Shown here piece after piece: positions 3,228 to 60,243 of a DNA stretch of 64,000 nucleotides. The stretch is from Eledone cirrhosa (Eukaryota). Every line of letters begins with the position of its first letter. Position 1 is the stretch's first letter. Made by a program: the position numbers and the translations under genes. The stretch covers positions 4,774,001-4,838,000 of the forward strand of contig OZ024760.1 in assembly GCA_964016885.1 (NCBI GenBank), written 5' to 3'. Below the pieces are notes generated by a model. The model was not told where the DNA came from and did no database searches. It saw only the letters and a program-made list of their open reading frames with translations.

Positions 3228-3643
3228 TTAACCTCTTCAGTGCCGTAGACGAGATAACTTGTCCTAACATGTATGTATTCCAGTGCCACGGACGAGATAA
3301 TTTGTCCTAACATGTGTGAACGTCTTTCCAACAGCTCATAACTTCAAAGTTATGAACTCCTTTCCAACAGTTCATAACTTCAAAGTTATGAACTCCTTTC
3401 CAACAGCTCATAACTTCAAAGTTATGAACTCATTTCCAACAGTTCATAACTTCGAAGTTTTGAACTCATTTCCAAAAGTTCATAACTTCAAAGCTAGATG
3501 GGGTTACTAGTTTATTGATGTGACGTTTGTCAATCATCCAGATATGTGTTGTTAATAAATGTTTGTTTAAAAAAAGTCATTTTATTGGGAAAAATCCTGG
3601 CAACTGTAACTGTGTCAAATGTATGCGGCAGTCAACAGGTTAA
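3228..3643. mobile_element. piggyBac-like MITE family B (TTAA-flanked)
   Basis: TTAA|CCTCTT...AACAGG|TTAA, with internal 30-bp tandem palindromic units (ttcataacttcaaagttatgaa). Reverse copies at 58621-58886 and, partial, 18208-18415. Confidence 0.75.
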
Positions 3644-3679
3644 AACTCTTTAAAATGTTTACTTTGGGAGGAGGAGGAG

Positions 3680-3940
3680 GATAGGAATCCGAATTGACAA
3701 GATTCTAGATCTCATTCACTTAATGAATGAGGTGCAGCTCATCAGATTGGACCAAGGAAACAACGTTTCCATCGGTCTTTCCAATTGTTGATACTATTTA
3801 CTGATTGCAACTCTTGGCAGAAGGAGCAACATGAAATAAAGCATCTTGTTCAAGAATACAGTGCATCACTCAACTTAGGAATTGAACTCACAACCTCAAT
3901 ATTGTAAATCCAACTCTCTAACCACTAACCCATGTGCCCT
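3680..3940 (-). mobile_element. tRNA-derived SINE
   Basis: Reverse A/B boxes. Shares its 3' region with the + copy at about 47003-47240. Confidence 0.7.
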
Positions 3941-4028
3941 TACTTTAATATTGCAAATTTTCACAATGTAAATAGTAAAAATACATTTGAATTGATGAAC
4001 CTATTTTTAAATAGTTTCTGTTGAATCA

Positions 4029-4257
4029 TTAACCCTTTAGCATTTACATTACTCTATACATACTATTGTATTTTTGTGCTAAATGCTTTATCTTACATAA
4101 TTATCTCACATAATATTGAATCTATGAGATTCTGATATTATTTATTTTGAGAACAATACCTTAATATCTGTATGTGTAGCTGGTTATAGCCAGTTTGAAC
4201 AGAAAGAGATGAGAGAATTCTAGCCGGATACGGCCAGTTTAAATGCTAAAGGGTTAA
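4029..4257. mobile_element. piggyBac-like MITE family A (TTAA-flanked)
   Basis: TTAA|CCCTTTAGCATTTA...TAAATGCTAAAGGG|TTAA. Other copies near 12460, 33565-33894, 40622, 46095-46323, 46737, 50135-50534 and 56810-56978. Confidence 0.85.
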
Positions 4258-4907
4258 AGGGTGCTGAGAGTTAACATCCTGTACCACACGAAACCATATT
4301 AGCAAGACATTCCTGAATAGTACAAAATGGCCACTATGATTGTATCACATTAAAAATTAAAGTCTTTAATTTAGTTAACAGTCCACGACTGCATTGATGG
4401 TGCTAATGAAACTTGTTAAAAAAATTTAACACAGCCTCAGATGTTGCATGATACACCTAAAACTGAAGGTGAAAAATTAGTCAGGATATGAACTTTGCAG
4501 CAAGCTCCATCAATATCTGGGTTGTTTAGGGCCTGAGCAATGATTGGTCAGTGGGAAAAATTCAAAAGTACCCTCGATGCTGTCATGGACTGTTAATTTA
4601 CTGCACATGTTCTCAACAATCTATCTATACTAGTGCACAACTAGATAATTGTGAAAATCTACAGTAATCTAAAGACTTTAAAGATACTATAAACATTTGA
4701 ATTAACTATCACTCTCTCTCTCTCTCATTTTCTTGTCTTCTCTCTTTAATTTTCTTGCTCTTTCTTTCTCTCTGTCATTCTAATGTCTCCTCCCGCCCCC
4801 CACATTCCCTCTCTCTTTCATTCTATTACTCTTTCTCCCTCATTGTAATGCCCTTTCTCCCACACTCTCTCATTCACTCTCTCTCTATATATATTTCTCC
4901 CTCCCAG

Positions 4908-14777: not shown

Positions 14778-15577
14778 GGGAGAATGAAGTCATTGTAATT
14801 TTATGGATATGTGTATTTATGATTAAAGAAAATATAAAGGAAATTATTGTAATTGATTTAAATGAATGAAAAACATGGCAATAGCCAGAATGACAAGAGG
14901 GAGAAGGTCAAGGAAAATTGAGAATTCAAGCATTTTTACATTATAAAACGAGAGCTTTTTTGATAAAATGTTGTGGTTTGGTTGAAGCATTGTATGATAT
15001 ATAATGTGGAAAGTGATATATGGCTAAACAATGCAAAATGGACTGTAAGATGAAGGTAATGAAAAAGTAAGTTACCTGGTAATCTTTGTTTTGTTTTTTA
15101 CTATAAACCCTGTCGCTTTTGATGGGTACTATGCTAGCATATATATATAAAATGAATATTAAAACATGATTTATTATTAAAGCATTCGTATATAATGCAT
15201 GTACATGTGCATATATACACACACACACGGAAAATCGGACGTGAAATGATGATGATGATATAGTAATAATAATAGTAATAATAAATGTGAAGACTAAAAT
15301 CCGAAGAGGGCTCGATATATATATGATATATATATAAATCTGTAGAGCAAATATTTATGATAAGAACAGATTAAAGTTTAAGCAAAGAATCACTGCTTTC
15401 ACCCTTATCGGAATCTTCTGAAGATCCCGTTAAGGGTGAAAGCAGCGATTCTTTGCTTAAACTTTAATCTATTATAAATAAATAAATGACGATGATGTGT
15501 GTGTGTGTGTGCATGCATGTATATATGTATTCACAATCTATACATTTCTATATATTACCTTTATTTGTTTATGACAG

Positions 15578-26751: not shown

Positions 26752-27055
26752 ATTGATCTAAATACAAATGGAGAGGCCTTATTAGATTTCTGTTTTAGCA
26801 ATGGACTCTCTATTACAAACACCTTCTTCCAGCTCAGATGTCCATAAATATACATGGTACAATCAGGGACAGAGATCAATAATTGATTTTGTTATTGTTT
26901 CTGATCTCTTTTATTCTGTACTGGATGTTCATGTTAAGAGAGGGGCTGAGCTGTCAACTGATCACCTCTAGTTATCTGCAACTTGAGATTACCTAAAGCC
27001 AAAGAAGCCCACAAAACTGGCAGGTCCAGGGCGATGTATAGAATAAAGTGGGAAT
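26752..27055 (+). mobile_element. RTE-type AP endonuclease fragment
   Basis: DLNTNGEALLDFCFSNGLSITNTFFQ, then (frameshifted) HKYTW...SIIDFVIV...STDH. Confidence 0.75.
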
Positions 27056-27260
27056 TTGGATTTTCCCAGCCTCGGAGATTTCTTCAGAGCGAATAACAGA
27101 GGCAGGAAGGGTGGAGACTCTTGAAGTTACAAAATCAAATATATATATATATAGTTAAAGAAAGAAGAGTAACATGGTTGGCTGTACAATAAGGGCTTTA
27201 TTTAAAGTACTGACAATTGTTTATATATATAGTTATGTAATAAACAACATAAGATAATTA

Positions 27261-27332
27261 TTTCATTTACCTAAGGTTTCACGAAGACAAACGAGCCTGA
27301 CACAGACGTCTACTTCAGTCATCAGAATGAAA
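27261..27332 (-). ncRNA. Type I hammerhead ribozyme motif (left arm of palindrome)
   Basis: Reverse complement reads TTTCATT-CTGATGA-CTGAAGTAGACG...CGTTTGTCTTCGT-GAAAC-CTTAG-GTA-AATGAAA. Confidence 0.75.
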
Positions 27333-27360
27333 ATTTATTTAAAATGGATGCGAGATAAAT

Positions 27361-27433
27361 TTTCATTCTGACGACCAAAGTCAGATGTCTGTGTCAGGCT
27401 CATCTGTCTTTGTGAAACCTTTGGTAAATGAAA
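27361..27433 (+). ncRNA. Type I hammerhead ribozyme motif (right arm of palindrome)
   Basis: Helix I TTTCATT/AATGAAA; CTGACGA 27368-27374; long helix II CAAAG-T-CAGATG/CATCTG-T-CTTTG; GAAAC-CTTTG-GTA with the triplet at 27424-27426. Confidence 0.78.
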
Positions 27434-27492
27434 TAATTATCTTATGTTCTTTATTACATAACTAAAAATCTCTGTAGTCTACATAGAGCACC

Positions 27493-27540
<48 letters not shown>

Positions 27541-31368: not shown

Positions 31369-31774
31369 CGAAGGAAATGTGGTAAGGAACCAGGTGGACC
31401 ATAACGCACCAAAGTACTCAATACTTGAGGTAGTAGAGTGGGTAATAGGAACCAGTAGGACCCCATATATATATATATATATATATATATATTACGTTAT
31501 TCCGGGTTGAATCGGGGGTAACCACAGTAAGTAAGGTACTCAATACATTGCAGAGTATAAAAGTTTTAATATAGATGAGATTCTACAGGACTAGAACTGT
31601 TTCATTCTTTAGAAATCATCAGGAATCCCTGATGATTTCTAAAGAATGAAACAGTGCTAGTCCTGTAGAATCTCATCTATATTATATATATATATATATA
31701 TATCTTTGCTTATATATATATATATATGTGTGTGTGTGTTTGTGTATATATGTTTTTATGTATATATGTATAAA

Positions 31775-35185: not shown

Positions 35186-35432
35186 CAGGACCGGATTTAG
35201 ATTTGATGAGGCCCTAAGCTATTTGAGATAATGGTGTTATAAAATATGTTATAAAAACTGCAAAACGTTCAATATTAAAGCAGAAAACTGTTTAAAACTA
35301 TTGCATTATTTTAGTTCTTTTTTATCTTATATTTTGGAAATGTACACCGTTTTTTTGTTTTTTTTTCGGGGCCCCAAGAAAGTGGGGGCCCTAAGCTATA
35401 GCTTGTTTAGCTTATACGTAAATCCCATTCTG
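35186..35432. mobile_element. hAT-like MITE
   Basis: caggaccggattta...taaatcccattctg termini and GGGCCC subterminal motifs. A related element lies at about 32752-32893. Confidence 0.5.
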
Positions 35433-35622
35433 TATATATTCATATGTGTGTGAGTGTGTGTATATATATACACACATATGTATATATACATACATATGTA
35501 TGTGAATAATATATATATATATATATATACTGAATTAAAAGTTAAGTGGAAATATCAAAGAGTAAGAGCACTCAGTCCATAGAAGAGTTTAGTATAAATA
35601 AATAATTACAACAGTGACATAA

Positions 35623-35672
35623 ACAGGTACTTAAGTTTCGTTGGGTTCTGGGCCCCAATTCATTCAGCCTGT
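35623..35672 (-). ncRNA. Minimal type I hammerhead-like motif with palindromic helix III
   Basis: Reverse complement reads ACAGG-CTGAATGA-ATTGGG-GCCCAGAA-CCCAAC-GAAACTTAAGTA-CCTGT. The core has one extra A. Confidence 0.65.
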
Positions 35673-35881
35673 CATGAGAAAAAAAAAATGAATTGGGGCC
35701 CAGAACCCAACGAAACTTAAGTACCTGTTTATGTCACTGTTGTAACTATTTATACTAAACTTGTCCTATGGATTAAGTACTCTTACTCTTGGATATGTCT
35801 ACCAAACTTTTACTACAGTATATATAATATATATACATACTTCTTTTCTTGTAATTTTATATATATATATATAATGCGCAC

Positions 35882-35920
<39 letters not shown>

Positions 35921-36126
35921 CACACATACATAAGTATATATATTCATATATATACACGCACATATGTATACGCTTATGCACACACACACACACAGTATCA
36001 ATGATAGAACCTTTCTCCAAATTGTCCCCTTAGATATTGTCATCCCACCCACCCACACATCGTCCCTTCATCTTCCACACACACACACACAGACAGACAC
36101 ACCCACACTCAAACTGTCACACACAA

Positions 36127-52069: not shown

Positions 52070-55000
52070 TCAACATCATCATCTACCACCACCACTGTCA
52101 CCACAGCAACAACAACACTACTACCTCCATCATCTCCACTACCACCATCAGCATCATCACGCAACAACCACACTACTGCCACAATCAACACTACCACATA
52201 AACAAAAGCCACACTAACTCCACCAGCACCACCAATATCACCACCATCACCAACAACAACACCGACATCAACACCGGCGCCAACAACACCAACATCAGCA
52301 CCACCACCACCACCACAAACATCACCACCACCACAACCACAAACAACACCACCACCACCACCACAAACATCACCACCACCATCACCACCACCACCACCAC
52401 AAACAACACTACCACCACCATCACCACCACCACCACCACAAACAACACCACCACCACCACCACAAACATCACCACCACCATCACCACCACCACCACCACA
52501 AACAACACCACCACCACAACCACAAACAACACCACCACCACCACCACAAACATCACCACCACCATCACCACCACCACCACCACAAACAACACCACCACCA
52601 CCACCACAAACATCACCACCACCATCACCACCACCACCACCACAAACAACACCACCACCACCACCACAAACATCACCACCACCACAACCACAAACAACAC
52701 CACCACCACCACCACAAACATCACCACCACCATCACCACCACCACCACCACAAACAACACCACCACCACCACCACAAACAACACCACCACCACCACCACA
52801 ACCACCACCATCACCACAAACATCAGTACCACCACCACCACCACCACCACCACAAACATCACCACCACCACCACCACAAACAACACCACCACCACCACAA
52901 ACAACACTACCACCACCACCACCACAACCACCACCATCACCACAAACATCACCACCACCACCACCATCACCACAAACATCAGCACCACCACCACCATCAC
53001 CACAAACATCAGCACCACCACCACCATCACCACAAACATCAGCACCACCACCACCACAAACATCAGCACCACCACCACCACCAACATCAGCACCACCACC
53101 ACCACCACCATCAGCACCACTACCAACAACAACAACAATATCAACATCAAGGGTTTTGGCATTGAGAAGTTATCAAAGGTAGTAGTTTATAGAATCAGTT
53201 ACACAATCCGAGTGTCTCACATACCCAGCCCAAACTACCGAGTTGTGTAACTGGATAGGACTAGGTGCTGGATAGTGTTACTGTTGTTAGTGGTGGTGTT
53301 GTTGTTGTTAGTGGTGGTGGTGTTGTTGGCAGTGGTGGTGGTGTTGTTGTTAGTGGTGGTGGTGGTGTTGTTGGCAGTGTTGTTGTTGTTGGCAGTGTTG
53401 TTGTTGTTGGCAGTGTTGTTGTTGTTAGTGGTGGTGTTGTTGTTGTTAGTGGTGGTGTTGTTGTTGTTGTTGTTAGTGGTGGTGGTGTTGTTGGCAGTGG
53501 TGGTGGTGTTGTTGGAAGTGGTGGTGGTGTTGTTGGCAGTGGTGTTGTTGTTGTTAGTGGTTGTGTTGTTGTTGTTAGTGGTTGTGTTGTTGTTGTTAGT
53601 GGTTGTGTTGTTGTTGTTAGTGGTGTTGTTGTTGTTAGTGGTTGTGTTGTTGTTGTTAGTGGTGTTGTTGTTGTTAGTGGTGTTGTTGTTGTTGTTGTTG
53701 TTAGTGGTGGTGGTGTTGTTGGCAGTGGTGGTGGTGTTGTTAGTGGTTGTGTTGTTGTTGTTAGTGGTTGTGTTGTTGTTGTTAGTGGTTGTGTTGTTGT
53801 TAGTGGTGTTGTTGTTGTTGTTGTTGTTAGTGGTGGTGGTGTTGTTGGCAGTGGTGGTGGTGTTGTTAGTGGTTGTGTTGTTGTTGTTAGTGGTGTTGTT
53901 GTTAGTGGTGGTGTTGTTGTTGGCAGTGGTGGTGGTGTTGTTTGCAGTGGTGGTGGTGTTGTTGGAAGTGGTGGTGGTGTTGTTGGCAGTGGTGTTGTTG
54001 TTGTTAGTGGTTGTGTTGTTGTTAGTGGTTGTGTTGTTGTTAGTGGTGTTGTTGTTAGTGGTGGTGTTGTTGTTAGTGGTGGTGGTGGTGTTGTTAGTGG
54101 TGGTGTTGTTGTTGTTAGTGGTGGTGTTGTTGGCAGTGTTGTTGTTGTTGGCAGTGTTGTTGTTAGTGGTGTTGTTGTTGTTGTTGTTAGTGGTGGTGTT
54201 GTTGGCAGTGTTGTTGTTGTTAGTGGTGGTGTTGTTGGCAGTGTTGTTGTTGGCAGTGGTGGTGTTGCTGGCAGTGTTGTTGTTGTTGGCAGTGGTGTTG
54301 TTAGTGGTGGTGTTGTTGTTAATGTTGTCGACAAGTGCTAGATATTGTTATTGTTGTTGTTGTTGTTGTTGTTGTTGTTATAGACAAGGTGCTGGATATT
54401 GGTGGTGTTGTTGCTGTGGACAAATGCTAGATATTGTGGTTGATGCTGGCGGTCGATAAAATCCTTACGGGGTCAATAAAATAAAGTACCAGTAATGCAC
54501 TGGGGTCAATTTAATTGACTTTCCCTCTCCCAAAAATTGTTGGCTTTGCGATATTTGTCGCCAACAGTGAGTAATAGTGGTAGTGATGATGATGATGGTG
54601 GGAGTATGATAGTGGTGATGATGATGATGATGTTGGGAGTATGATAGTGGTGGTGATGATGATGATGTTGGGAGTATGATAGTGGTGGTGGTGATGATGA
54701 TGTTGGGAGTATGATAGTGGTGGTGATGATGATGTTGGGAGTATGATAGTGGTGGTGGTGATGATGATGTTGGGAGTATGATAGTGGTGGTGATGATGAT
54801 GATGGGAGTGATGGGAGGATGATAGTGGTGGTGATGATGATGTTGGGAGTATGATAGTGGTGGTGGTGATGATGATGTTGGGAGTATGATAGTGGTGGTG
54901 ATGATGATGTTGGGAGTATGATAGTGGTGGTGATGATGATGTTGGGAGTATGATAGTGGTGGTGGTGATGATGATGTTGGGAGTATGATAGTGGTGGTGG

Positions 55001-55460: not shown

Positions 55461-55987
55461 GAATAGTAAGGTAGATCTACCCTAGAAATACCTTCTATCT
55501 AAAGTATGTGCTTGTGTGTATGCATGCATTTGTACACACACACACATATATTTATTAAAATAACATTAAAATTTAAGCAAAGAATCGCTGCTTTCACCCT
55601 TAACAAGATCTTCTGAAACTATGGTTTTATATATTTTATATATATATATTATCCTTATTGAGCCCTCTTCACATTTATTATCCCGCCGAGGTTGACTTTG
55701 CCTTTCATCCTTACAGGGTCGATAAAATAAAGTACCAGTAATGTACTGGGATAATTGCTGGCCTTGTGCCAAAAGTAGAAACAATTATTACTATATATAT
55801 AAATATATACAAAGAGAGAGATACATACATATATATATATATAACCAAAGATTAATATGGTTCATTGATTACTCAATGAATATAGTTTTACAATAGATTA
55901 AAAGCACTCTACAAAGAAGTTTTCTGGAGTTATTAATATTATTCAGAATATTAATAAATGAAGACATTCACATAATCAAAATATATG

Positions 55988-56049
55988 TTTTTTTATATAT
56001 ATTTCGAAGGTACTGTGCTGTTTTTTCAGTATGTCCTCATCAGATAAAA
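55988..56049 (-). ncRNA. Type I hammerhead ribozyme motif (left arm of 350-bp palindrome)
   Basis: Reverse complement reads TTTTAT-CTGATGA-GGACATACTG...CAGTACCTTC-GAAA-TATAT-ATA-AAAAAA. One helix I mismatch. Confidence 0.68.
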
Positions 56050-56160
56050 TACATGAATTGATGTATGACATACCTCAATGGTCTTGATGGTTCAATTGAC
56101 TGCCAAGACTGGAATTGAACCATCAAGACAGTTGAGGTATGTCATACATCAATTTATGTA

Positions 56161-56222
56161 TTTTATCTGACGAGGGCGTACTGAAAAAACAGCACAGTAC
56201 CTTCGAAATATATATAATAAAA
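56161..56222 (+). ncRNA. Type I hammerhead ribozyme motif (right arm of 350-bp palindrome)
   Basis: Helix I TTTTAT/ATAAAA; CTGACGA 56167-56173; helix II GGGCGTACTG/CAGTACCTTC; GAAA 56205-56208; palindromic ATATATAT helix III; ATA triplet 56214-56216. Confidence 0.78.
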
Positions 56223-58098
56223 CATATATTTTGATTATGTGAATGTCTTCATTTATTAATATTCTGAATAATATTAATAAATGAATATACACACATTGAC
56301 TGCAAAGTTTTGCATGCCTACGTATGTGTGTGTGTGTCTTATGTATGTGTGTGTGTCTTATGTTCATGTGTGTATACATAGATGAGTGAGTGTGTGTGTG
56401 TGTATGTGTTTCTGTGCATGCAACTGTACATGTACACACACATATATACTCACACATACAACAGACACACATGTATACACATCATATACACATAAAAAAC
56501 ACGTGTATATATACATATGCATATACACAACACACATGTATATATACATATGTACACATGCAATACTTTGCAGTAAATGGGTGCATACATGTGTGTCTAT
56601 GTATCTATCTGTATGTATGTGTGCATTTCTAAGTATGTATGTGCATTTGTAAGTGTGTATGTGTGCATTTGTTTATGCATATTTGTTGTGCATCTGTTCT
56701 TGAATTCTTCCTTCAAGGTAAACATCTAAAAGCTCATATAACATAACAACAACAGCAACAACATCTCTATTAGTATCACTAGTGGTACTATATTTACTAA
56801 TTTTTGTTCACAGTAAAGGCTTTATCTCACATAATATCGAATCTATGAGGTTTTGATGTCATTTATTTTGAGAACAATACCTTAACGTCAGTAGGAGCAG
56901 CCGGTTACAGCCGGTTTTAACAGAAAGAGGTGTGATAATTTTGGCCGGATACAGCTGGCTTAAATGCTAAAGGGTTAATGTGATGCAATCATAGTGGCTG
57001 TTTTGTATTTTTCAAGAATGTCTTGCTAATGTAGTTTCATATGGTTTATTAAAATGTTTATGGCATCTTTACTGCAGGTCAAATCCTTATAAAACTTTGT
57101 AATATTAAAGTAACAACTTCAATTTTTAATGTGATACCGTCATAGTGTTGTTTTGTACTTTTCAAGAATGTCTTGCTAATGTGGTTTGTTAATTCAAACG
57201 TTTTTAGTATCTTTACTAGTAGACGAGTCATTGTGAACATTTACTGCATGAAAGTCTTTAAGGATAACATCCAAGACTCCAAGACCCCTCTTTTGGCTTC
57301 AGAGACTGGTGGTGGGGTGGAAGTGCAACATTCATGACCCTTTTTTCACAGCTTCTGAGATTAAAGGTGGTGGAAAGACAACGATCATCACCCCTTTTTT
57401 CAGGGCCTCTGAAACTGAAGGGTGGAGTGGGTTGGAAGGGAAGACGTTATCTGCAGACTGGAGAGCTTGTCTAAATGTTTGCAGTAGTGTGAGTCCTACT
57501 AAAGTTTGTGCGGAGTACTCAACCACGTACATGCTACTTCAACTCTTTCATTACAGTATTTCTAATAAAAATGGTGGTGTTGGTGTTGGTAATAGTGGTG
57601 GTGATGATGGTGGTGTTGGTAATGGTGGTGGTGGTGATGATGGTGGTGTTGGTAATGGTGGTGGTAGTGATGGTGGTGTTGGTAATGGTGGTGGTGGTGT
57701 TGGTAATAGTGGTGGTGATGATGGTGGTGTTGGTGTTGGTAATGGTGGTGGTGGTGATGGTAGTGGTGGTGATGGTGGTGTTGGTAATGGTGTTGGTGGT
57801 GGTGATGATGGTGGTGTTGGTAATGGTGGTGGTGGTGATGGTAGTGGTGGTGGTGGTGGTGGTGGTGATGGTGGCTGTGTTATTAATGGCAGTTATGGCA
57901 ATGTTGTTGCTTTTGTTGGCAAGGACAGTGTTGTTGATGGTGATGGTAACAATGGTGGTAGTGGTAGTAGTGGTGGTGGTGGTAGTGAGAAACTGCTTCA
58001 ACTTTAAAAATTCATTGACCTTCTTGTAATACATACATATACAACCCTACTACTACTATTACTACTGGTAATTCATACATATACAATCCATATTGCTG

Positions 58099-59973: not shown

Positions 59974-60243
59974 GAGGCACGTGGCCTAGTGGTAAGAGTA
60001 TTGGACTTACGATCATAACGTCACAGGTTCGATTCCTGGGTTGCCTATTGTGTTCTTGAGCAAAACACTTCATTTCACATTGCTCCAGTATACTCAGCTG
60101 AAAATGAGTACCAGCAATAGCTGAGGGTTTAACCCTGCGATGGACTGGCGTCCTGTCCAGGGGGGAGTCTTGTGCTCTCAGTCGCTTCACGCCATGAAAC
60201 CGGGATAAGCACCGGCCAAATGAGCCTTCTGGCTTAAGACTTA
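59974..60243 (+). mobile_element. Full-length tRNA-derived SINE inserted in a (GTA)n repeat
   Basis: A box TGGCCTAGTGG, B box GGTTCGATTCC, central TTGAGCAAAACACTT and ccctgcgatggactggcgtcctgtccagg domain. Confidence 0.85.

Follow-up and report, generated by a model that had tools for sequence, protein, structure and literature searches.

Penelope-like elements of the Hydra clade are C-terminal EN+ elements, for example Hydra-1_Obim (Craig et al. 2021, PMC8557442). The head-to-head layout with a one-sided tail is already published for Penelope-like elements: inverted, 5′-truncated pLTR copies with such a tail were described for Pen2a_Av (PMC3846280) and in the legend to Fig. 2 of PMC8557442. 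Target-site duplications are often indiscernible where the target is a microsatellite (PMC8557442). Cervera and de la Pena (2014, PMC4209133) reported dual minimal hammerheads of metazoan Penelope-like elements, 100–700 bp apart on opposite strands. For Poseidon_Ac, two reverse transcriptase (RT) start sites bound the tail, and both strands were extended in vitro (Frangieh et al. 2024, PMC11167929). Related hammerhead motifs of Penelope-like elements cleave weakly, or need a dimer or a protein (PMC4209133; PMC11167929; PMC7229834).

The locus described here lies in the window, i.e., the whole 64,000-nucleotide stretch of Eledone cirrhosa DNA that was analysed. We regard it, with a probability of about 0.9, as the stump of a Hydra-clade Penelope-like retroelement: a head-to-head insertion of 261 bp, flanked by (TA)n tracts, that RT likely wrote onto both ends of the cut target and that has likely decayed neutrally since then. 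The inverted repeat at 27231–27463 is bounded on both sides by (TA)n tracts. A repeat search of the window returned arms at 27225–27311 and 27383–27469 with 91% complementarity, and local alignment of arm against arm gave nine substitutions and one 1-nt gap across ~109 nt. The left-flank (TA)n target remnant occupies 27222–27230; in the family, 58 of 62 intact no-tail arm ends adjoin (TA)3. Next to it lies an inverted 5′-truncated pLTR copy without a tail (27231–27357, minus strand), which stops at the family's fixed inner end point. It includes the central spacer (27339–27354), which is element sequence and belongs to the left arm, and the left type I hammerhead motif (27261–27332, minus strand; core 27325–27319, predicted cut between 27268 and 27267, one-base deletion in helix II). 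The head-to-head junction is ATA, a 3-nt overlap common to the 5′ ends of both arms (27355–27357). The direct 5′-truncated pLTR copy (27355–27463, plus strand) carries the right type I hammerhead motif (27361–27433, plus strand; core 27368–27374, predicted cut after 27426), in which all four helix II CpGs have decayed to give two compensated pairs. It is followed by the remnant of a one-sided Penelope tail (27464–27491, plus strand), which keeps 28 nt of the ~64-nt family tail and whose loose end at 27491 runs on into the family tail. The right-flank (TA)n target remnant spans 27496–27537. Since the right arm continues into the tail remnant up to 27491, the insertion footprint is wider than 27231–27463, where the initial annotation had stopped short. 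Both flanks are (TA)n, so no target-site duplication is readable at the locus. The head-to-head arms, the tail at one end and the overlapping junction resemble the Pen2a_Av-type insertion unit; unlike in that unit, there is no ORF between the arms and the target-site duplication is unreadable in (TA)n. The family tail of ~64 nt compares with the usual 30–40 nt.

The type I hammerhead descriptor scan located CUGACGA at +27368 and CUGAUGA at −27325, and both motifs read outward. Each has a 7-bp helix I, a long helix II, the GAAA, a helix III of 2 bp plus A-U with a 3-nt loop, and a GUA cleavage triplet. The CUGANGA / GAAA / UH core and helices I–III of a type I hammerhead were found by both the descriptor scan and the folds, in agreement with the initial annotation, which had described an inverted repeat with a complete hammerhead in each arm. 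In RNAfold calculations, the right arm by itself adopted the hammerhead as its minimum free energy (MFE) fold; for the left arm by itself, the hammerhead fold lay 2.0 kcal/mol above the MFE. Rfam yielded no hammerhead match at the locus, either at the gathering cut-off or at E ≤ 10, and its E-value matches there were generic hairpin families, far under their own cut-offs. Therefore, the ribozyme call depends on the descriptor and the fold. The helix II variants cited earlier were confirmed, and pairing is kept with G-U wobbles; the left-arm match requires a 1-nt slip, owing to one deleted base.

The non-canonical C-U opposition reported at the first position of helix II was indeed present after A9 in both arms. 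It is a subfamily trait: among the 151 distinct arms that cover the core in our alignment, the first opposition of helix II was C-U in 59, U-U in 53, A-U in 17 and G-U in 15. The R10.1–Y11.1 closing pair of helix II, usually G-C, is missing from the window arms, and A-U or G-U stood there in 32 of the 151. For this reason, we speak of a hammerhead motif and not of a proven ribozyme; the C-U opposition in place of the closing pair may lower activity. The type I topology, the long helix II and the weak helix III are as in the minimal hammerheads of metazoan Penelope-like elements (PMC4209133). The consensus in that source has one bulged base and a G10.1–C11.1 pair, whereas here helix II begins with C-U (or U-U, A-U, G-U) and loop III lacks a palindrome. 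In the axolotl HHR_Amex2, the base of helix II is reported to carry a U-U mismatch (PMC7229834). Divergent sub-lineages (L198, L204, L213, L220) showed a shortened upper helix II with core and 3′ end unchanged, which implies that the upper stem is dispensable. The arms also resemble the non-LTR retrozymes (PMC7229834; bioRxiv 10.64898/2026.07.22.740005), which are small and non-coding, carry a type I hammerhead and are kin to the pLTRs of Penelope-like elements. Unlike retrozymes, they form no tandem array (there is one inverted pair in the window), and they are the end of a protein-coding element.

The parent element was traced by walking upstream through the low-complexity region and then searching for the RT region. 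At five of 30 ORF-selected loci (L194, L197, L210, L213, L220), pLTR and tail lie ~115–120 nt ahead of the ORF start. ORF remnants, 3′ UTR and pLTR follow in order on one strand at L181 and L186, with other insertions interspersed. The presence of a pLTR both before and after the ORF was established piecewise, and no single fetched copy held both pLTRs and the whole ORF; the ORF occurs in sister copies and is absent from the window. The L194 ORF, which starts at ATG 700 and is interrupted by stops and frameshifts, aligned with residues 1–652 of P0001 at 51–57%. It contains RWK, DKT (in place of DKG), the CxCX5C linker, CxxC, a Y...YVG motif and a Y-x-DD motif with a stop; this catalytic RT motif is broken by a stop codon in the ORFs of both L181 and L194. 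Across 36 homologues, RWK was found in 28, DKT in 31, CxCX5C in 26, CxxC in 33 and a YRDD-type motif in 34. The homologue P0060 scored above the PF01541 (GIY-YIG) cut-off (E = 2.5e-6), and GIY-YIG was recognised at E ≤ 0.01 in two of the 36 aligned homologues. Genomic fragments of the element gave no Pfam match, Pfam RVT_1 and PDB did not recognise its RT, and an alignment-based PDB search returned only two weak, unrelated matches. Therefore, the RT identity is based on the motifs together with its resemblance, judged by eye, to the published Hydra alignment.

RWK, DKT, CxCX5C, CxxC, the hammerhead near the 3′ end and the (TA)n target are all as in the Hydra clade (PMC8557442). Judged by eye, the N-terminus and RT of the ORF are similar to those of Hydra-1_Obim, and the hammerhead differs from the tabulated one, which points to a different family. 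Hydra-clade elements are generally <3 kb; in contrast, a low-complexity 3′ UTR of ~2 kb brings the present element to ~4 kb in total, pieced together from several loci. Two short arm motifs sought in the supplement of PMC8557442 gave no match, in a text where line breaks could hide them. On the basis of these sequence comparisons, we assign the arms to a Hydra-clade Penelope-like retroelement with an RT/GIY-YIG-type ORF, in which they are the end repeat (pLTR); among the published Hydra families compared, no named family was matched to it.

Other candidates for the parent were rejected. The RT ORF at L003 (recognised by Pfam RVT_1), which we tentatively take from its motifs to be an R4/Dong-like LINE, stands head-to-head with the arm on the opposite strand and was not found linked to it in other copies. 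The Hydra-type ORFs just past the tail at L190 and L191 are separated from it by (TA)n, so they probably belong to other families. We also observed another hammerhead family nested head-to-head within the 3′ UTR of the parent family at L181 (~3400–4420). Within the element copy at L187 (3599–8344), a 591-bp unit is repeated about eight times at 100% identity; the array is either very young or an artefact of assembly.

The arm is a dispersed repeat of the 3.0-Gb genome (1452 first-look candidates, 40 of them scored). Its 36-nt 3′ pattern has 185 exact matches, and three helix II patterns have 775 (73 + 54 + 648) genome-wide. A copy with a mutation at a fixed letter escapes the exact helix II patterns, and the counts still include a few junction artefacts (3 of 100 matches in one set, 1 of 61 in another). 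Across loci L001–L120, 63 distinct pairs were arranged head-to-head and 51 hits were unpaired; a search by arm favours pairs, and some of the unpaired hits belong to long insertions with two arms. Exactly one tail was found in 60 of the 63 pairs, no recognisable tail in three, and two tails in none. The outer ends fell at two fixed points ~64 nt apart, and the inner ends varied among loci. The longer arm was the tail arm in 18 pairs and the no-tail arm in 23, and the arms were equal in 19. The Hydra-type insertion preference was evident at the outer ends of paired arms, where (TA)3 lay within 12 nt of 99 of 111 intact ends (58/62 no-tail, 41/49 tail). The window locus conforms to this scheme, as its right arm runs into 28 nt of tail and the spacer lies on the left arm; an inverted 5′-truncated copy with a tail at one end is what we found in 60 of 63 pairs and in the window itself. 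A long near-perfect inverted repeat in TA context would also be expected of a fold-back DNA transposon (MITE) mobilised as a single unit. A fixed-length unit with symmetric terminal inverted repeats was not what we saw: the inner ends vary by locus, only one end has a tail, solo arms exist, and an element with an RT-type ORF has this repeat as its pLTR. We consider the chance of a MITE to be negligible.

The retroelement reading suggests the following course of insertion. The GIY-YIG endonuclease would cut the (TA)n target, after which each DNA end would prime the copying of RNA that stems from a single source element, starting at one or the other of the two fixed sites. The two cDNAs would halt early, near the front of the hammerhead, and their ends would be joined head-to-head. 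The arms would be identical at insertion and would later gather private mutations, mostly through deamination of methylated CpG. We infer both-end priming with early termination from the two fixed ends, the single tail per pair, the variable inner ends, the shared source and the TA target. As in Poseidon_Ac (PMC11167929), two fixed ends bound the tail and the target is AT-rich. Unlike in Poseidon_Ac, which belongs to another clade and has the tail inside its ORF, the tail here lies in the 5′ UTR, ~115–120 nt before the ATG. At pattern-selected loci, 70 of 123 inner ends lay within ~24 nt of the helix I start; a transcript start or a structural stall near this point would explain the abundance of stumps.

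For the joining step, a single cDNA could instead fold back and copy itself, the self-priming proposed in PMC3846280. The source variants shared by paired arms and the 3-nt overlap at the window junction would fit such a course. However, the spacer belongs to the no-tail arm, so the longer cDNA would be the one without a tail, and it could not have made the tail of the other arm. Moreover, either arm may be the longer one across pairs (23 vs. 18). We therefore find fold-back self-priming unlikely and prefer two primings; this alternative affects the joining step only, and the identity of the element is unchanged by it. Family-wide scoring of junction microhomology was uninformative, as the walk halted at subfamily variants and 54 of the 63 joins scored insertions. 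As a separate observation, a hairpin of 6–7 bp starts ~5 nt past the no-tail end point, at 27468–27489 in the window and at 521–541 in L194. Most of 112 tail copies keep this hairpin, with no covariation, and it may indicate where RT starts. In L194, no clear second hairpin was seen beyond the tail end.

Paired arms tended to share their rare variants. A rare variant common to both arms occurred in 13 of 30 full pairs, compared with 52 of 870 between-locus comparisons. By subfamily, the pairs were a/a in 17 cases, b/b in six, c/c in one, o/o in two and a/b in one; three were mixed with 'other' and 33 were unscorable. Because rare variants are shared and subfamilies are nearly always concordant, we conclude that the paired arms stem from one source element. 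One RNA and two sibling RNAs would give the same record, and local conversion would also be compatible with it. In the window, the two arms have no rare variant in common, and nine of the 100 sites compared differ between them, which exceeds the median of 5.9% for pairs. These features, together with pair L030, which scores as different subfamilies, could indicate two different source elements, one for each arm, with ribozymes that had already diverged in a compensatory manner. On the other hand, the arms of L030 share a rare variant, the pairs are otherwise concordant by subfamily, and the best genomic match of the right arm, among the 40 scored of 1452, reaches 95%. Among 73 matches to the helix II pattern, the three 3′-side changes of the right arm co-occur in the window only, and its combination of changes is found in no other match. 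Given this unique haplotype and the lack of a common rare variant between the window arms, we take the right-arm changes to be private. The suggestion that the arms derive from two template copies thus disagrees with both the haplotype and the usual sharing of source variants, and we consider it highly improbable.

The initial annotation had read the pair-preserving differences between the arms as a sign of selection on structure, and had allowed that CpG decay could explain part of them. Relative to the family majority, four CpG transitions in helix II distinguish the right arm, along with a single change located 3′ of the ribozyme. In the left arm, we counted two CpG transitions, of which one is at N7, a non-CpG C>T, a change in loop III and the loss of one base. 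Five of the six helix II substitutions of the window arms are CpG transitions, which bears out the remark on CpG decay. An origin by RNA editing was rejected, as the arms carry no A>G changes relative to the majority. The majority helix II contains two CpG:CpG steps. Because 5′-CG-3′ pairs with 5′-CG-3′, half of the single decays yield a G-U wobble and half of the double decays look compensatory; by the pairing rule, a double decay is expected to be compensated in half of the cases and paired in three-quarters. CpG sites in helix II changed at a rate of 12.7%, compared with 4.2% for non-CpG sites.

We counted the consequences for pairing, by script and by hand, in the 149 arms other than those of the window. 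Single CpG decays kept pairing in 27 cases and broke it in 31 (p = 0.69); without 37 arms that had been chosen for their likeness to the window, 21 kept and 19 broke it. Double CpG decays were compensated in seven cases, wobble in two and broken in four. Non-CpG pair changes kept pairing in 14 cases and broke it in 48, with no double or compensated change. For the genome-wide tallies, which were made by hand with the window arm removed, the double decays at the upper CpG step were compensated in 16 cases, wobble in 13 and broken in seven, compared with the 18:9:9 expected from a 2:1:1 ratio (p = 0.29). At the lower step, the compensating T was present in three of 60 G>A arms vs. five of 100 baseline matches (the first listed among 648); subfamily b, in which this T is fixed, was excluded from the lower-pair count. 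At the 5′ CpG of the upper pair, the state that keeps pairing was slightly favoured (72 vs. 54, p = 0.13). One-sample contigs, in which many copies are pooled, which possibly come from the assembly's own sample and of which none spans the locus, carried the majority CpG letters at 27386, 27402 and 27411. Across copies, the changes were random with respect to pairing (p = 0.69 and p = 0.29), which, as far as substitutions are concerned, is the outcome that the initial annotation had set against its own reading of selection. The pair-preserving differences between the arms most likely reflect ordinary mutation at CG sites and not selection.

The non-CpG sites of the catalytic core differed from the majority in 27 of 1270 cells, compared with 148 of 3697 in the 3′ part (p = 0.0014). 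Rare alleles were equally dense in the two (19 per 10 sites in the core, 55 per 29 sites in the 3′ part), and alleles common to six or more copies numbered zero in the core and 16 in the upper helix II. This weakly suggests that the core was constrained in active elements and free once inserted, in a set of related copies whose alignment favours intact cores. The statement that the structure 'is or was under selection' can thus be retained, tentatively, as 'was', and probably for the core in the source lineage; it does not extend to the differences between the arms.

The right arm is an outlier in this family. When 73 other arms were scored for zero to four decayed CpGs, the counts were 36, 28, 7, 0 and 2, and both arms with four decays came from a divergent sub-lineage (28 arms were unscorable, and subfamilies with a fixed T were excluded). 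At a uniform rate, the chance of four decays with both pairs compensated is 1.2e-4 per arm, or ~0.09 over 775 arms. Decays cluster within arms, as the partner was decayed in 37 of 126 cases vs. 16 of 100 (p = 0.026), and the locus has lost six of its ten CpGs, so the true chance of the pattern is higher than the uniform-rate value. Given the decays at the locus, all three affected steps would remain paired with a probability of 0.28. The right arm was also chosen for study because it looked special.

It could be argued that selection keeps helix II paired at this locus, within a ribozyme that was retained, or put to use by the host, and that the long hairpin gates. The two fully compensated pairs, the intact core, the hammerhead as MFE fold and the genome-wide figure of ~0.09 speak for this. 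Against it, all four changes of the right arm are CpG transitions, the family shows no pairing bias, and, in the left arm, one base of helix II is deleted and the fold is weaker. The divergence of each arm from the majority is typical (five changes in ~108 nt; subfamily mean 4.2%), and an intact core with its triplet, kept by 114 of 151 arms, is unremarkable. Selection at the locus is therefore very unlikely. We give equally little credence to any non-chance origin of the compensated pairs, be it a host-kept hammerhead that the hairpin silences in read-through RNA, or a hairpin-templated repair that copies CpG decays across the DNA stem; the family-wide counts support neither. Neutral decay of CpG sites is the reading we retain for the right arm.

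In read-through RNA, RNAfold preferred the hairpin by 84–88 kcal/mol, and the probability of the hammerhead helices was close to zero. The prediction that the hairpin would outcompete the ribozyme fold in such a transcript was thereby supported in the model. It had been described as a 'built-in off switch', a term we would not keep, as no on-state or trigger is evident. The predicted block of the ribozyme fold is a by-product of insertion, expected from any fresh palindrome. The fate of a read-through transcript is more likely double-stranded RNA silencing or editing. The hammerhead likely works in the RNA of the parent element and not at the present locus.

The window holds further palindromes and repeats. 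A second, unrelated head-to-head palindrome (96.6%) lies 4 kb away at 31567–31684, between (TA)n tracts. It has a type I hammerhead at −31622 with a longer helix III and a one-sided tail at ~31493–31566; the architecture is the same and the family is another one. Further fold-back palindromes were seen at 35431–35922, 55930–56280, 15352–15484 and 52103–54328, and no hammerhead was detected in these. The left flank of the locus (27164–27222) is a fragment of a high-copy repeat that ends at the same (TA)n tract, possibly the terminus of a different element with a TA target. At 26780–27110 lies a decayed repeat that has many relatives in the genome. At 59975–60047, Rfam gave a tRNA-like match whose score, 29.1 bits, only just reaches the gathering cut-off; it is probably a SINE head or a pseudogene.

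The locus itself is minor, being one among hundreds of dead stumps. CpG:CpG pairs in the RNA helices of repeat-derived sequences can yield apparent covariation without selection, an effect that was quantified here on ~775 copies. The record of the family, with its two fixed ends, one tail per pair, either arm being the longer one and variants shared between the arms, fits the priming of both ends of a break from one source RNA. This fit bears on the unsolved integration mechanism of Penelope elements.
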